Shown: positions 34,901 to 52,900, counted from the first letter of the stretch. The stretch: 64,000 nucleotides of DNA from Prorocentrum cordatum (GCA_963575745.1 CAUYUJ010000002.1:1736001-1800000); one strand, 5' to 3'. Made by a program: numbers and translations. Notes: generated by a model not told the origin, from the letters alone.

Positions 34901-37900
34901 CTCCCTGGCGCGCGGAGCGCGCCAGGGGAGGCGCCGAAGGCGCTGCCAGGGGGCTCCAGCGCCGATCAAAGAGGTCCGCGCGGACTTCTGAAAGCTCATG
35001 CTTATGTCATTACATGGCACCCCGCAGTTGCGGATAATAGTGAGGGGGCGGGCGCTGGTTGGGTCGCGGGTGGGTCGCAGGTGGGTCTCGCGGTGGGTCG
35101 CGGGGTGGGTCGCGGGTTGGTCGCGGGCGGGTCGCGGGCGAGGACGACGACAACACAACACCAGCACAACAAGCAAAATCCGGCAGACGGAACGCCACTT
35201 CTGTCACGCACCCACGGACAATGAATGACTTTAAGGGTAGCTCTTTGGAAGATGTTACAGTATCGGGAGCATAGCTCGCGCGCCGCTGCCTTGGGCTCAA
35301 GGCACGCGCGCCCTATTTGCCCGGACACTGCTTGTGTTCGCTATGTGCTGGAAAGATCATTACATCGATCTGATCCTATCTTACCCATCCACCCCTCATA
35401 CTGTACCCTCACAGCAGAGCGATGGATGCTATTTGCCAGGCTATATGCCCTATTTGAGTTACCAGGTTCACTTTCGACTTGGTAGCGGAGCTGGCCGCAC
35501 TCTCGTGTGGTCAGCTTTTGCTCTTCTTAGCCTCATATTCTTCGGCACGATCTTCGTGACCACCTACCACCCTGCGCCACCACTCCCAGTACGTTTACGA
35601 GGATCTATTCAAGAGCAAGAAGCAACACGAGAGGTACGACGTCTAGACGACCAAACTGGTACCATATACGCTTCATCATTGCGTTACTACCAACCGCTCG
35701 GCAACGAGCTAACAGCGCAATACTTGAAGCAAGGGCGGGGAGACCCGCCAGACAGAGCGCCTCGAAGACTCGACAAGGCGCTACCCCAGCGCGACACCGC
35801 TCATCATAACCGTCCTTCGTTACACATTCTCGGGCTAATCGTTTTCGCTATCATATGGTTCGCGCTGGGGGCAGCAATCGCACACATGCGTCGGGGAGAT
35901 AACAGCACCGATGGGCAAACACATGGCCCATATTGGGACCCTCAGGGTAATGTACCTTTTCGTGAGTACATTTACGAGGTCAACGCGTGGCTCAACGTTA
36001 CAAGCGGACGTATGACGCCACAGGCCCAAGCGGCCGCAATACAACGCGGCCTGGGAGGCCTAGCGAGGACACTCGCCATGAGGGTACCGCCTGACATCAT
36101 AAACTATGGTGCTGATATCGACGGGGTCCACACAGACCCAGTAACTTATATCATGTTTCTCCTCAGCATGAAATTCGAACGCCTGGAAGATGAGCGACAG
36201 CTCACTTCCGGCACACAACTTATTGACTTCCATGTGCCTCACGGGGAACGAATCGATGTTACTCTTACCCGATTCGAAATGGCCCGACTTGAGGCACAGT
36301 CGGTGGGATTCGACCTTCCCAACTTCCAACTGTTAACTACTATCCTATTCCGCGCCCTAGGCGTCGGCAACCAGAAGGCCATGCAACTCTTACAGCCACT
36401 CAATCACCAAATGCCTCGAACACAACAACAGTATGATGAGTTGCTGGAGAGGATGCGTTCGGTAGGCCACCTATCCGAACGGTCTCCTGGTAACATAGGA
36501 TCTGTGTTTGGAAGGGGAAGGGGATCTGGTAGTGGAAATTTCTACACTACCTTGACCACTGAAGCCCAGCCTGGAAACGGGCCCTCAAGCATATGGGCCG
36601 ATGACCCAGGAGAATCCACTGCTTTATTAGCAGGGGATCGATCACAACCAAGCTGGGCAACCAGCCCTCCTTCTAGAGAACCACAACCACACCGCTCGTT
36701 ATGGGGGGAATCAAATCCCCTAACCGACGGTGTATCCACCTATTTAGGAGACGAAGACTTCGACTCCGGCACCGATACAGACACTATATCATCAGATGGT
36801 GTTGAAGCTCTAGATTGGTCAGATATCATGAATATGGATAACGACAATCAGCGTGCTGAGCATTTATTCTGGCTGTTACAACAGGCCAAACGAAGGTGGA
36901 GGAGGTTCACACGAAAACCAGTGCGTCGTGTTAGAAGGAGGATACGCAGAAGTTTTAAAGGAAAGGGTAAAGGCAAGCGTGGTCGTCGGAGGTTGAACGG
37001 GCGAGGTATCGCGGCATTTCTCCAGAGGCTCTCAGATGAACAACATGATGAGATATTCTTTGGGGGAAAAGGCCGTGGTAAAGGCCGTAGAGAGACCTCG
37101 GGTAAAGGTAAAGGTAGGCGGGGAAACCCGCGAGGTAGAGACGGCCAGGTTCTCAAATGCCATGAATGTGGTAGTTCCGATCACCTTGTGCGAGATTGTC
37201 CAGCGAAGGGAAATGGAAAGGGCACGTCGTCCGAAGTCCATTTTGGCTCGAGCACACCGTCCACTGAGTATCTGAGCCTCCAGGACTTTGAGGCTATGGA
37301 ACAGATATTTTTCACATGGGTCGTTGGCATGGACAACATTGACGAGCTCGAGGGGTATGGTCATGGATTATACGCGTATTACCTCGAGTACGTCCGCCGG
37401 TTCGTCACGGGCAGTAATGAACTCACTCCCGTGGAACACGGTACGCTCGGAAACGAGCCTCTTTCCTTCTTCGACTGGATGTTCGGGAACCCAGGCAACA
37501 TCATGGCCTACGAGAGCGACGACGAGGACACCACTATAGAGGCTTCGCCTTCCGAGGTTCAACGGAACCTCGAACCTCCGCCCGCAATCCCGCCTGGAAA
37601 CAGGCCTTCTTTGATGGGAGAATATCCCCAGACCACTGAAGACTTAATTGAAATGAAGTCTCAGGCATCTGTTCAGGCCTTCATTGCAGGCGAACCAGAT
37701 ATTCCGTTCATACCTCCTGGTTCGCTTGCTCCAGGCGAATATGGACCACGTACCCTTTTGCAGACCCTCATGAGGATGCATGAGATACTTACAATTGGTT
37801 ATCCTGAGAGTCAAGAACACATCGAAGCTGGCATCATGACAGAACAGGATAATGATGCTTGCGGCAGCTCAGAGCTACTCTTGGCAGCTTTGACTCTCAT

Positions 37901-49900: not shown

Positions 49901-52900
49901 AGTTGACATCCATAGCGATTCGGGGTATCGGAAGCTTACCGGGGAGGAGGATGACGAGACCAAGGGCTACGGCATACGCGGGGCCAACGTACTACGGCGA
50001 GGAAACTCGCCTCAAGGCAAGTCCGTCGTTCACCTCTGTGACGGACTATGCAAATCACACCGATTACAGGTGAGGTCCAGTTATGCTGCGGAGGCACTTG
50101 CAGCCGCACATAACCTTGATGAGTGTTACCCTACGCTCATTACTCTCCACGAGCTTAAGGCAGGGGCTTTGACTCCACGACAACTACGAGACATGCGTGA
50201 AGTTGGAGGCCTTGCTATCAAAGTCTCTCTTACCATAGACGCTGAGTCCGTCTACAAATCTTTATCAAGCAGGGATCTCAAAATACCTACAGAACGGACT
50301 CTGCTTGGACATATCAGCTGGATACGTGAGCTCATGGATATAGGTATAGTACATAATGTGCAATGGTGTGATACTAGGGATATGACCGCAGATGGGCATA
50401 CAAAGGGAAGCATCGATCGGGAGCTGCTTCTGGAAGTGATGTCAGGCACTCAGTCATTTAAGTATGACGTGAAGCAATTTGTTCCCTTTCGGGGTCCCGA
50501 GGACAGAGACAAACCCAAGTCTAATCAATTTTAGTCTGTCCTTGTTGCCCTCGCGGTCCAGTTTGCCAGCACGGGCGCCTACTATAAAGGCGCCCCTTTA
50601 GCTGCTCGGAAACGAGCCTTATATTTCACGCCTGGCAACGAGCCGGCTTCGTACAACTCAGGCTCTTTGCCTTAATACACATTTGCTTGGTGAGGTATGG
50701 CCTAATTTTGGCTTACCTCTAACTAAGCCGATAGCCCTTCATTGTTTGAAGGGGCTGTCCTGTATTTGCGTGAAATACTTTGCGAGGAAACTCGCCTTAC
50801 AGTCTGGTGTTTGACCAGACTGTACGCACTGTTTTCTTTTCTTTGCAAACAGTCGTGCGCGCGATCTTTGCGTGCGACTATGCTCTCCGTCTCCTCCCCT
50901 CCCGACTTTAAGGGTAACTCTTTGGGAGATGTTACAGCATCGGGAGCATAGCTCGCGCGCCGCTGCCTTTGGCTCAAGGCGCGCGCGCCCTATTTGCCCG
51001 GACACTGCTTGTGTTCGCTATGTGCTGGAAAGATCATTACATCGATCTTATCCTATCTTACCCATCCACCCCTCATACTGTACCCTCACAGCAGAGCGAT
51101 GGATGCTATTTGCCAGGCTATATGCCCTATTTGAGTTACCAGGCTCACTTTCGACTGAATGGCTGCTCGGCCCCCTCGGTCTATCTTTGTTCCCCCGAAG
51201 GTCGGCCAGAAGCGCTCCACCGTCGCCCAGCTCTTCGAGATCCTGCGCAAGAACGACTGCCTGAAGTACACCACCATCGTGGCGGCCACCGCCTCGGACG
51301 CCGCGCCGCTGCAGTTCCTCGCCCCCTACACGGGCTGCGCCATGGCGGAGTACTTCCGCGACACCGGCCTGTGAAGGGCAGAACATGGCACACTAGACAT
51401 GCACCCAGACATCCAGCACACATCGAGAATCAAGACGAAGAGGCTCTGCTACGCTTTCGGCCTCCGGGGGCCCTCGCCGCGCCCCGGGACAGCCGAAAAA
51501 CGACTCGCGGCGAAAAACCATCCCTGGTGAAAGGGCCGGGGCGCCTGTGGACCCTGGATGGACAACATCAAGGCATCGGATGCGAGGACAGCACAAGCCA
51601 CCCCCACCCCCACCAGCACCCCTATTCCCAACTTGGTGATCGAGGCCCAGACATGCGACGTCCTGATTTTTTCAGGACGGGGTCCCTGGAAGTCCCGACC
51701 TGTTCCCCAGGACCGGTTTATCCCGAGGCCGGGCGAGGGCCCCCCGAGGCCGAAATTGGCCAAAAATGTCCCGTCCTGATTTTGTTACGACGCGATCGTG
51801 TCTTGGCGGGGTCTTCGCTTGGGGGGTGGGGGGGGATTCTCCAGCCCGCAACCATTCGGATCCCCCAGCCGCAACCACTCGGATCACCAGGCCGAGCGAA
51901 GGGATCCCAGCGGGGGTGGGGGCGGGCTCTGCTGTCCTCAGGATGTCTGGGAACGTTCGGGAGTGTCCGCAAGGACCTCTCTTGGGTCGGCGTTGCAGCG
52001 CCCCCCCCCCTCTCGGGGGCGCGCAAACATGGATTAGCGATCCATGGATTTGGCGCGCGGTCGCTCCTACTCTCCGTTCTCCTCCTCTCCCTCCATCTCC
52101 TCCTCCTCCTCATCATCATCTTCCTTCTCCTCCTCCTCCTCCTCCTCCTCCTCCTCATCTTCCTTCTCCTCCTCCTCCTCCTCCTCCTCCTCCTCCTCCT
52201 CCTCCTCCTCCTCCCTCCTCCTCCCTCCTCCCTCCTCCTCATCCATGGATCGGGGGAGGTGCCCTCCCCAAAATGCAGCCGGTGCCGTCTGGCGCCGGAA
52301 AGCTTCGATTTCTGATGGAAGCGGGACCCGCCGCTAATCCACGCCCCCTTGATCCATGTTTGCGATCGCCCGACCCTCGCCACATCCCTGGCGGCTTCCC
52401 CCGACGTAGCCCTCGGCGCGCCCCCGGCGCGCCAGGGCAGGGGCGTGGGGAGGGGGGCCTGGCGCCGCCCCAGGAGATCCGCGCGGACCCCCGACGGTTT
52501 CTGCTCCTGCAGTTGCTCCGGCTGCACGTGAGAGCACCGTGAGAGTGTACAGTGGGGGCCCATGCCAAGAAACACCCTGCTTGCCTCCAGGGTGCCCTGG
52601 GCTTCTTGGGTTTCGATTGTTTTGCGATGGAGAGCGTGAGATTCCCACACCAAAAATCAACGGGCGTCCTGATGTCTCAGGGTTGGGTTTCTTGTGGAAG
52701 GTTTCTGGTGGACTGGCCTCCACTGCAGCCGATTGCCCTGCATTTTCCAGGCAAGCACGCCGTGATCTTCTACGACGACCTCTCCAAGCAGGCCGTGGCC
52801 TACCGGCAGATGTCCCTCCTGCTCCGCCGCCCGCCCGGCCGCGAGGCCTACCCGGGCGACGTGTTCTACCTCCACTCCCGCCTGCTCGAGCGCGCGGCCA

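Follow-up and report, generated by a model that had tools for sequence, protein, structure and literature searches.

Why would one strand of a very long retrotransposon carry the same small hairpin again and again? The window analysed here, 64,000 nt of Prorocentrum cordatum DNA (GCA_963575745.1, CAUYUJ010000002.1:1736001-1800000), contains on its + strand a 15.9-kb Ty1/Copia-type LTR element (element A, 35227-51155), roughly three times as long as a typical Copia element, together with a degraded relative (element B) in which Tpt1, RING and Pol remnants persist and tblastn matches of the element A frames run along 1992-9050 (Table 1). In translation, the Gag of element A has its CCHC knuckle adjoining a long Arg-rich stretch (zf-CCHC E 0.0013, which misses the Pfam threshold), and this Gag-like frame is 41% identical to the gag region of a relative, L027. 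The Tpt1 domain of element A also matches PDB 7yw3 (1.5e-10), its Pol has metagenomic relatives at 52-58% identity, and relatives show, by coordinates and synteny, a single in-frame stop at the equivalent Gag-Tpt1-RING/Pol junction.

Table 1. Features of elements A and B, all on the + strand. 'New' marks element A hairpins absent from the sequence-only reading.
Feature	Position	Remarks
Element B, degraded relative of element A	1..~10400	truncated by window start; 3' limit approximate
B hairpin GCAGG-GCAA-CCTGC	1177..1190	
B hairpin GCGGG-GCAA-CCTGC	1351..1364	
B hairpin GCGGG-GCAA-CCTGC	1983..1996	
B hairpin GCAGG-GCAA-CCTGC	6809..6822	
B hairpin GCGTG-GTAA-CACGC	7005..7018	
B hairpin GCGGG-GAGA-CCTGC	8072..8085	Pol residue ~296
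B hairpin GCGGG-GAGA-CCCGC	8706..8719	Pol residue ~512
Target-site duplication TGAAT, 5' copy	35222..35226	identical 5 bases at 51156-51160 after 3' LTR
5' LTR, element A	35227..35479	253-nt direct repeat, 97% identity to 3' LTR
Gag-like open frame	35241..38900	Arg-rich stretch, one CCHC knuckle; reading broken downstream in this copy
Primer-binding-site-like TGGTAGCGGAGCTGG	35481..35495	directly 3' of 5' LTR; presumably resembles initiator tRNA-Met end
GCTCG-GCAA-CGAGC	35696..35709	leader, or open frame 5' of first post-LTR ATG
GCGGG-GAGA-CCCGC	35735..35748	
GCCTG-GAAA-CGGGC	36569..36582	one G-U pair; L027 hairpin at equivalent Gag position
GCTGG-GCAA-CCAGC	36652..36665	
GCGGG-GAAA-CCCGC	37118..37131	
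GCTCG-GAAA-CGAGC	37445..37458	equivalent L027 position: GCGGG..CCTGC
GCCTG-GAAA-CAGGC	37592..37605	
GCAGG-GAAA-CCTGC	38159..38172	
GCAGG-GGGA-CCTGC	38375..38388	
Looser hairpin CGTTG-GAAA-CAACG	38878..38891	without outer GC
GCGAG-GAAA-CTCGC	39106..39119	
GCGAG-GCAA-CTCGC	39231..39244	new
GCGGG-GAAA-CCCGC	39682..39695	
GCGGG-GAAA-CCCGC	39760..39773	
Open frame, RNA 2'-phosphotransferase (Tpt1/KptA) domain and RING finger	40003..42672	PF01885 2e-19; zf-RING 3e-7
GCCGG-GAGA-CCGGC	40363..40376	
GCTGG-GAAA-CCAGC	40899..40912	
GCAGG-GAAA-CCTGC	41400..41413	
GCTCG-GCAA-CGAGC	41578..41591	new
GCGAG-GAAA-CTCGC	41988..42001	equivalent L027 position: GCGGG..CCTGC
GCGGG-GTAA-CCCGC	43016..43029	
GCGGG-GAAA-CCCGC	43049..43062	
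GCGGG-GCAA-CCCGC	43584..43597	
GCAGG-GAAA-CCTGC	43673..43686	
In-frame TGA	44043..44045	Gag-Tpt1-RING half upstream, Pol half downstream
GCGGG-GCAA-CCTGC	44116..44129	G-U pair
GCACG-GAAA-CGTGC	44732..44745	new
GCTCG-GAAA-CGAGC	44989..45002	
GCGCG-GAAA-CGCGC	46071..46084	
GCGTG-GAAA-CACGC	46581..46594	equivalent element B position: GCAGG-GCAA-CCTGC
Pol open frame, Copia-type reverse transcriptase RVT_2	47025..50534	PF07727 4e-9
GCAGG-GAAA-CCTGC	47904..47917	Pol residue ~295; L001, element B there: GCGGG..CCTGC
GCCTG-GAAA-CAGGC	48311..48324	Pol residue 431; L009, L032 there: TCACG..CGTGA
GCTCG-GAGA-CGAGC	48572..48585	Pol residue 518; new
GCGAG-GAAA-CTCGC	49210..49223	new
GCGAG-GAAA-CTCGC	49997..50010	Pol residue 993; relatives, residues 993-1001: GCGTG, TCGTG or TCACG stems
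GCTCG-GAAA-CGAGC	50604..50617	untranslated, 3' of Pol stop
Near-miss GCCTG-GCAA-CGAGC	50630..50643	one inner pair broken
GCGAG-GAAA-CTCGC	50782..50795	untranslated, 5' of 3' LTR
3' LTR, element A	50904..~51155	partner of 5' LTR direct repeat

One hairpin in many copies on a single strand

The motif, GC-NN-G/GNRA/C-N'N'-GC, comprises five base pairs: G-C and C-G on the outside, then two that are free and covary, and last a G-C that closes the GNRA tetraloop; its 3' tail is mostly C then U, and flanks are not conserved between copies, the shape alone being kept. The + strand of the window has 41 copies of it, with 34 in element A (35696-50795) and seven in element B (1177-8719), versus 0 on the – strand, while the 37.6 kb of host DNA in the window contain 0 copies on either strand. 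A sequence-only reading of this DNA had proposed a sense-strand hairpin with compensating stem changes; its restriction to that strand holds across the window, and 29 of 29 positions listed there carry a hairpin of the form described, to which we add five in element A and all of those in element B. In 1000 dinucleotide-preserving shuffles of element A we counted a mean of 0.022 copies (maximum 1), and in 1000 synonymous-codon shuffles that kept the protein a mean of 3.5 (maximum 8), versus 34 observed.

For a non-circular test of covariation, only the fixed letters GCNNGGNRACNNGC were matched and the N's were left unconstrained, giving 42 + strand sites. Both N pairs are complementary in 41 of these (~14% expected by chance) and Watson-Crick in 36, with 50630 the sole match that fails, bearing out the compensating pairs without pairing having been imposed. 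At least ten different stems are found among the hairpins of element A, where density is ~2 per kb and spacing is rather even (coefficient of variation 0.69 versus 0.97 for random placement; a spread this even arises in 1.4% of random placements). Predicted folding of the sense RNA in 164-nt context gives a mean pair probability >0.5 for 31 of the 34. Rfam gave no match to a ribozyme or other family.

Reading frame and conservation in related elements

The sequence-only reading had also argued that the hairpins occupy different reading frames as well as the 3' untranslated part, and that protein selection therefore does not explain them. The untranslated copies at 50604 and 50782 stand, but the statement about frames was overstated, because 24 of the 32 open-frame hairpins of element A share one codon phase (phase 2; binomial p 2e-6). 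Nine lie inside one uninterrupted 1219-codon frame. Phase-2 hairpins encode x-Gly-Asn/Asp-x-Pro, and residues one and four of this peptide covary exactly as base pairing demands. A codon-phase bias is also present in relatives (35 of 58 hairpins), and L027, unlike element A, has 9 of its 15 hairpins in phase 0. Protein selection is nonetheless inadequate, given the codon shuffles, the untranslated copies, the phase used by L027 and compensating stems at homologous sites; a strand-specific, covarying structural signal at the nucleic-acid level, beyond what protein coding explains, is well supported.

In 58 metagenomic loci (202 kb), relatives carry 42 strict hairpins in sense versus 2 in antisense orientation, and 76 versus 7 fully paired GGNRAC cores. 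The hairpin-bearing loci form one clade in an RT-RNase H tree, within which hairpins are absent from 6.7 kb of L005 and from the shorter pieces of L007, L010 and L013, suggesting that the motif can be lost or replaced. Covariation extends to family members, with compensating stems at homologous sites: GCAGG and GCGGG at Pol ~296; GCCTG and TCACG at 431; GCTCG, GCGGG, GCGAG, TCACG and GCATG at 512-519; and GCGAG, GCGTG, TCGTG and TCACG at 993-1001. A hairpin also lies within residues 512-519 in five further lineages, matching the one at 48572 of element A, which also has three Gag or Tpt1-RING hairpin sites in common with L027. Hairpin pairs stand directly upstream of gag in the leaders of element A, L027 and L032.

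The stem 'dialect' differs lineage by lineage. L009 and L032 invariably use TCACG..CGTGA within a more extended helix with a covarying outer stem, L006, L008 and L002 use GCA[CT]G, and GCAA loops are preferred by L027 and element B. Single mismatches are G-U in 36 cases versus A-C in 21, a modest excess that favours RNA over DNA only weakly, and A-C mismatches recur in several lineages (L002, L004). A 33-nt in-frame insertion in one copy of the family carries a hairpin of its own, which indicates that hairpins can arrive through insertions or deletions.

Possible readers and roles of the hairpins

The motif is likely, in our view, to be a structural element that is under selection and read in trans. 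Our preferred reading of its role, held tentatively and drawn from sequence comparison, is that the hairpins are dispersed packaging signals of the genomic RNA. Gag packaging signals, or binding sites for some other protein of the element, had been suggested in the sequence-only reading, and the anatomy is compatible with such a function. They would form a selected structural motif on the sense-strand genomic RNA, running through leader, coding sequence and 3' untranslated part in a clade of ~16 kb dinoflagellate Ty1/Copia-type elements, and many weak sites would be jointly bound by one element-encoded RNA-binding protein. The likeliest candidate for this reader is the nucleocapsid-like part of Gag, with its Arg-rich stretch and CCHC knuckle. 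By binding, this protein would tag the very long RNA as belonging to the element and promote its capture and encapsidation, and the stem and loop dialects may reflect co-evolution of site with reader. Weighing against such a role, a GNRA hairpin of 5 bp makes a simple target, and many stem variants are tolerated, so that specificity would rest on shape, outer GC pairs, loop and 3' CU. Classical retroviral and Ty1 packaging signals, moreover, concentrate 5' and are not dispersed.

In retroviral and Ty1 5' leaders, tetraloop hairpins bound by nucleocapsid zinc knuckles serve packaging and dimerisation. The likeness lies in the leader hairpin pair and in short hairpins with G-rich tetraloops, carried by the genomic RNA of a reverse-transcribing element with a basic CCHC protein of its own; in retroviruses and Ty1, however, a few unique structures are confined to the 5' region, whereas element A has ~34 copies of one motif along 15 kb. 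Lambdoid phage boxB hairpins, bound by arginine-rich N peptides, resemble the motif in their 5-bp GC-rich stem, GNRA-type fold and arginine-rich reader (the Gag of element A is Arg-rich), but boxB, with its pentaloop and its one or two copies per operon, acts in antitermination and has no homology to the element A hairpins. According to PMC6281560, ssRNA viruses and HBV pregenomic RNA carry multiple dispersed stem-loops with a common coat-protein recognition motif, likewise scattered on the packaged strand within coding sequence and combining variable stems with a common loop motif. Those viral signals are degenerate and mostly inferred statistically, whereas the motif of element A is near-perfect, with the length of the helix, the closing pair, the class of loop and the 3' tail all defined; it belongs to an LTR retrotransposon, and its binding by a coat protein is putative. 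Literature searches returned no description of such hairpins in LTR retrotransposons, in keeping with the novelty that the sequence-only reading had claimed.

An unlikely alternative, though worth weighing, is a role at the level of the RNA itself or one directed against the host, with a host factor or another element protein, such as the RING-containing region, as reader of the hairpins. Hairpin anatomy, strand bias and covariation also fit this, and the even spread would suit a role needed along the entire RNA, which might be to export the RNA from the nucleus, stabilise it, shield it from decay or silencing, or suppress cryptic cis- or trans-splicing in a 16-kb unspliced RNA; the hairpins might also be folding insulators that hold a very long RNA in local structures. 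Dinoflagellate mRNAs are generally trans-spliced, and a long unspliced RNA would thus face a special problem. The outgroup element L028 has a different dispersed covarying motif on its sense strand, which suggests that the need is general to this group of giant elements and that the solution differs. The lineage dialects, however, are more easily explained by an element-encoded reader than by one conserved host factor, and there is no enrichment of the canonical 11-nt GAAA-tetraloop receptor (CCTAAG: one sense and two antisense occurrences).

A service in reverse transcription, as RNA or single-stranded DNA, seems improbable. The hairpins might be sites of pausing or of RNase H processing from which several plus-strand primers remain, or strand-transfer and recombination sites for copying an unusually long template. 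The length of the element and the fairly even spread agree with this, and the tract adjoining the 3' LTR is pyrimidine-rich in place of the usual polypurine tract, so plus-strand priming may be unusual. GNRA loops and G-U pairs are nevertheless hallmarks of RNA folding, the freely variable stems do not resemble a purine tract, a gap of 108 nt separates the last hairpin from the 3' LTR edge, and no DNA ends mark the hairpins in the contigs compared.

We regard as very improbable, and disfavour, a cycle of RNA cleavage/ligation or modification that would be tied to the element's own Tpt1 domain and have the hairpins as substrates. Tpt1 removes the 2'-phosphate left by tRNA-ligase-type joining, and elements A, B and L027 encode it, but it did not turn up in other relatives with hairpins: in L006, one of these, the 2.5 kb upstream of the RING finger contain no Tpt1. 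A complete Gag-RING frame without Tpt1 is seen in L028, the Rfam result gives no ribozyme, and open frames continue through the hairpins, which argues that they are not excised. Least probable, and largely refuted, is a by-product (a repeated x-G-N-x-P peptide, a small inserted repeat or a functionless mutational footprint), which would suit the phase bias and the 33-nt insertion but conflicts with the codon shuffles, the pairing-driven covariation of the peptide, the untranslated and differently phased copies, the unconserved flanks and the compensating changes at homologous sites.

SmTCL1-4, heat-activated Ty1-copia elements of Symbiodinium microadriaticum, are described without mention of hairpins, Tpt1 or RING domains; they are ~10 kb long and recently expanded, and share with element A the superfamily and the large size (PMC5776459). 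The element A family is itself present at high copy number in the contigs of the sequencing run.

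Hairpin census, base pairing and overlap with the protein code

Scanning both strands of the 64-kb window for the hairpin motif GC-NN-G/GNRA/C-N′N′-GC, in which either free pair could also be G-U, gave 41 hairpins on the forward strand and none on the reverse strand. Thirty-four of these are spread over 15.1 kb (35696-50795) of element A, a 15.9-kb Ty1/Copia-type LTR element, on its sense strand only, and seven further forward-strand hairpins lie at 1177-8719. The sequence-only reading of this DNA had described dispersed, strand-specific hairpins in element A; at each coordinate that it listed the described hairpin is present, and five more were found at 39231, 41578, 44732, 48572 and 49210. 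Its expectation of far fewer than one chance copy agrees with dinucleotide-preserving shuffles of the element (n = 1000), which gave a mean of 0.022 copies and a maximum of 1. Permuting synonymous codons with every protein frame kept (1000 shuffles) left 3.5 copies (maximum 8), a loss of nine tenths, and the 37.6 kb of host DNA within the window has no hairpin on either strand. Placement along the element is more even than random (CV 0.69 versus 0.97), with 1.4% of random sets equally even. An identity as a mobile mini-hairpin repeat (REP/RPE-like) is at odds with the unique flanks and with the absence of copies from the antisense strand and from host DNA of the window.

All 41 window copies have a GNRA loop, with GAAA (23), GCAA (5) and GAGA (3) the commonest in element A, plus GTAA, GGGA and others. 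In a non-circular test of pairing, both free positions were complementary in 41 of the 42 forward-strand matches to the fixed letters GCNNGGNRACNNGC, where chance would give about 14%, and 36 matches had two Watson–Crick pairs; the reverse strand of the window has no match to these letters. The compensating stem changes proposed from the sequence alone are thereby borne out, and homologous sites in relatives compensate as well. Directly 3′ of the helix, C comes first in 29 of the 34 element A hairpins and T second in 20; a helix-lengthening G at –1 is uncommon (4/34). Folding of the sense RNA in 164-nt context predicts a mean pair probability above 0.5 for 31 of the 34. A longer helix around the element A hairpins is not general (mean z about –0.5 against shuffled flanks, 98 hairpins), and in the same comparison consistent longer structure was found only in the L009/L032 and L006 lineages of related metagenome loci. 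Among 40 differing places listed from 350 between family copies, one falls in a hairpin, at loop N, a sample with no power for testing stem avoidance. No Rfam covariance model matched, a permissive scan of 35000-51300 giving two chance-level snoRNA matches (E >4), and the halves of the 11-nt GAAA receptor are not enriched (CCTAAG, 1 sense and 2 antisense; TATGG, 20 sense and 19 antisense).

Most hairpins within the open frames of element A (24/32) share one phase, reading x-Gly-Asn/Asp-x-Pro (p 2e-6), so that the earlier claim of different reading frames is in need of correction. In the dominant phase, loop N occupies the wobble position of the Gly codon and loop R the first position of the Asn/Asp codon, and the variable loop letters therefore come at low protein-level cost. 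The codon-phase bias is an accommodation to the protein code and not the cause of the hairpins, because the flanking residues covary as base pairing demands (L..E, R..P, Q..L, R..S, P..R and so on), synonymous shuffling removes most copies, two copies are found beyond the Pol stop, as the claim of hairpins beyond the coding sequence had it, and the related locus L027 mostly uses another phase, Ala-Gly-Gln-Pro-Ala (9/15). Seldom is a structural code in RNA seen so cleanly laid over a protein code.

Relatives, dialects and homologous sites

Pol relatives in metagenome protein sets are 52-58% identical, and our sample of relatives comprised 58 loci on metagenome contigs, 202 kb in total. In these loci the strict motif, with fixed letters and pairing, occurs 42 times in sense versus 2 in antisense, and GGNRAC cores whose four outer pairs are all present number 76 versus 7. 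In an RT-RNase H tree built from the 33 of 60 sequences that covered at least 80% of residues 700-1150 (27 fell short), the hairpin-bearing loci and elements A and B, the latter a degraded relative at the window start, form one clade, and the outgroup clades have 0 or 1 hairpin copies. A few members of the hairpin clade have no motif: L005 is without it over 6.7 kb, as are L007, L010 and L013 over shorter pieces; a de novo k-mer search of L005 for a substitute found none.

Lineages differ in the form of the hairpin. L009/L032 always use TCACG-GNRA-CGTGA inside a longer helix (N4-7, a bulged U, G-U paired with A-C, a bulged C) whose outer stem covaries between sites. L006, L008, L002 and L003 use GCA[CT]G..CGTGC, and an A-C mismatch recurs in L002 and L004. 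L027 has 17 copies in 8.8 kb and shares with element B a preference for GCAA loops, against GAAA in element A. When hairpins were placed on Pol residues by tblastn, compensating stems were found at shared Pol sites across lineages, extending the proposed covariation to the family. In Gag and in the Tpt1-RING frame, three element A sites match L027 sites and others are lineage-specific, and this mixture of shared and lineage-specific sites indicates that they are partly ancient and partly turning over.

The outgroup element L028 is without the GNRA motif and has a 35-nt structure of its own in seven or eight copies, on the sense strand only. Aligning seven of the eight sites (the excluded one is without the inner palindrome) revealed compensatory changes in 9 of 15 predicted pairs.

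Features of elements A and B, their surroundings and related loci (window coordinates unless a Pol residue or another locus is named)
Feature	Position	Observation
Host exon	33614-34708	Just upstream of element A; 95-96% identical to Symbiodinium ATP synthase alpha
LTRs, element A	35227-35479 and 50904-51155	253 nt; 97% identical
Gag-like frame, element A		Arginine-rich stretch and one CCHC knuckle
RNA 2′-phosphotransferase (Tpt1/KptA) domain, then RING finger, element A	40003-42672	
In-frame TGA, element A	44043-44045	
Pol, element A		Copia-type RVT_2 (PF07727, E 4e-9, above cut-off)
Pyrimidine-rich sense strand	50870-50903	Just upstream of the 3′ LTR; CTCCGTCTCCTCCCCTCCC
Element B	Window start	Older, degraded relative of element A; Tpt1, RING and Pol remnants
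Hairpin stems	Pol ~296	A GCAGG; L001 and B GCGGG
Hairpin stems	Pol 431	A GCCTG; L009/L032 TCACG
Hairpin stems	Pol 485-491	L002/L003 GCATG; L017 and L036 GCGCG
Hairpin stems	Pol 512-519	A GCTCG; B GCGGG; L001 GCGAG; L009/L032 TCACG; L006/L008 GCATG
Hairpin stems	Pol 993-1001	A GCGAG; L001/L021/L027 GCGTG; L020/L029/L030 TCGTG; L009/L032 TCACG, twice
L028 motif GGAGACC[TA]CGACCG[AT]GG in covarying outer helix	L028: 150-200, 1836-1886, 4076-4126, 5759-5809, 8243-8293, 10046-10096, 10883-10933	Sense only

Possible roles of the hairpins

The hairpin is a selected, strand-specific, structured nucleic-acid motif, conserved in one clade and present in lineage-specific forms. We infer that it acts as RNA, because its loops are of the GNRA class, G-U pairs are tolerated and its copies keep to the element's transcribed interior. 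The ratio of G-U to A-C among single mismatches (36 to 21) supports RNA action weakly, this RNA-versus-DNA comparison being confounded by CpG decay in dead copies.

The most economical reading would be that of many equivalent putative binding sites for one element-encoded protein, and the lineage dialects suggest a reader evolving along with the element. The foremost candidate reader is the nucleocapsid-like part of Gag, with its arginine-rich stretch and CCHC knuckle, and the leader hairpin pairs together with the dispersed copies would be compatible with a packaging role. We hold at slightly under even confidence that the hairpins are dispersed binding sites of a Gag-type reader, for packaging, one of the functions that the sequence-only reading had put forward. 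Dispersed packaging signals are a concept described for ssRNA viruses and HBV (PMC6281560), and the likeness lies in the multiple dispersed stem-loops that share a motif on the strand that would be packaged. In kind, the hairpins would go with the RNA hairpins that act in cis and are read by proteins in reverse-transcribing elements, and with the dispersed packaging signals of viruses.

A bolder and more speculative version is that, among these giant Copia elements of dinoflagellates, every sub-lineage might carry its own RNA ‘barcode’, a hairpin dialect of stem letters, preferred loop and helix extension in dozens of copies, that coevolves with Gag so that only its own RNA is packaged among competing lineages in one nucleus. 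Equally speculatively, the dialect might overlap the protein code in a phase that gives harmless Gly-Asn turns. If true, mobile elements would here have a code for telling self from non-self, undescribed for any LTR retrotransposon.

Among other readings, a service in RNA export, stability, anti-splicing or folding insulation is unlikely. More doubtful still is a part in the reverse transcription of a very long template, a reading on whose side stands the oddity of the tract before the 3′ LTR, which is pyrimidine-rich and lacks the polypurine tract from which plus-strand priming would be expected. A Tpt1-linked cleavage-ligation cycle is very improbable and is disfavoured, because Tpt1 was found only in the A/B/L027 sub-lineage and the hairpins are spread more widely. 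A peptide or mutational by-product, set against the shuffle losses and the pair-dictated residues, is the least credible reading of all.

Beyond Ty1, Ty3 and retroviruses, little is understood of the way in which LTR retrotransposons select their own RNA to be encapsidated. Here a candidate encapsidation signal would be readable from sequence as a 16-nt shape with about 34 repeats, compensatory variants and dialects. This candidate signal is unusually explicit and directly testable, and its natural variants offer a ready set of mutants for assays of binding, probing and packaging. Searching the open full-text literature, we found neither dispersed GNRA hairpins described for an LTR retrotransposon nor a Tpt1 or RING domain reported in one.

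Architecture, activity and surroundings of element A

Element A is flanked on both sides by a TGAAT target-site duplication and has a putative tRNA-type primer site, in addition to its LTRs and Copia-type reverse transcriptase. No integrase (rve) match was found in it, and a weak one lies upstream of RT in the relative L039 (E 4e-4, below cut-off); comparison of the frame at 45151-47106 with PDB sequences returned nothing. The RING finger is common to all clades sampled. Tpt1/KptA lies inside the Gag-side polyprotein, upstream of RING, in element A, at 290-1096 of the window and at 820-8778 of L027.

In intact relatives the reading runs through one or two giant frames, interrupted by a single in-frame stop where the Gag-Tpt1-RING half meets Pol, as in element A. 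This stop is seen in L002, L006, L008, L028 and L043, and such a stop in otherwise continuous frames suggests programmed readthrough rather than frameshifting. On several metagenome contigs (L028 of 12.5 kb, L027, L032, L008 and L015) gag follows Pol after only 0.4-1 kb, and L028 shows circular permutation; such contigs are probably multi-copy elements assembled in tandem or with collapsed LTRs.

Contigs of one public sequencing run reveal that the family is high in copy number and that many of its copies are variant; on 35227-51156 the summed contig depth is very high, and hundreds of positions vary, mostly by transitions. The several frame breaks of element A coincide with small insertions or deletions that distinguish other copies, and element A therefore belongs to a family active in recent times and is itself mildly decayed. 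One family copy has a 33-nt in-frame insertion carrying its own hairpin. Ty1-copia elements of about 10 kb in S. microadriaticum are heat-responsive, in a paper that does not mention hairpins (PMC5776459). Given the abundance of the giant elements and the heat-inducibility of these Symbiodinium relatives, the biology of such elements bears on genome change in coral symbionts.

With its intact 5-bp target duplication and insertion at 35227, element A lies ~0.5 kb downstream of the exon of mitochondrial-type ATP synthase alpha, and perhaps inside that gene. The match of this exon to Symbiodinium marks the window as dinoflagellate DNA. The host flanks contain tandem repeats with units of 21 nt and 81 nt, and long low-complexity tracts with triplet periodicity (53611-54177, 54532-54843; 30000-31200, 52040-52270), and (TG)n-type runs occur on the reverse strand at 51-64 kb.
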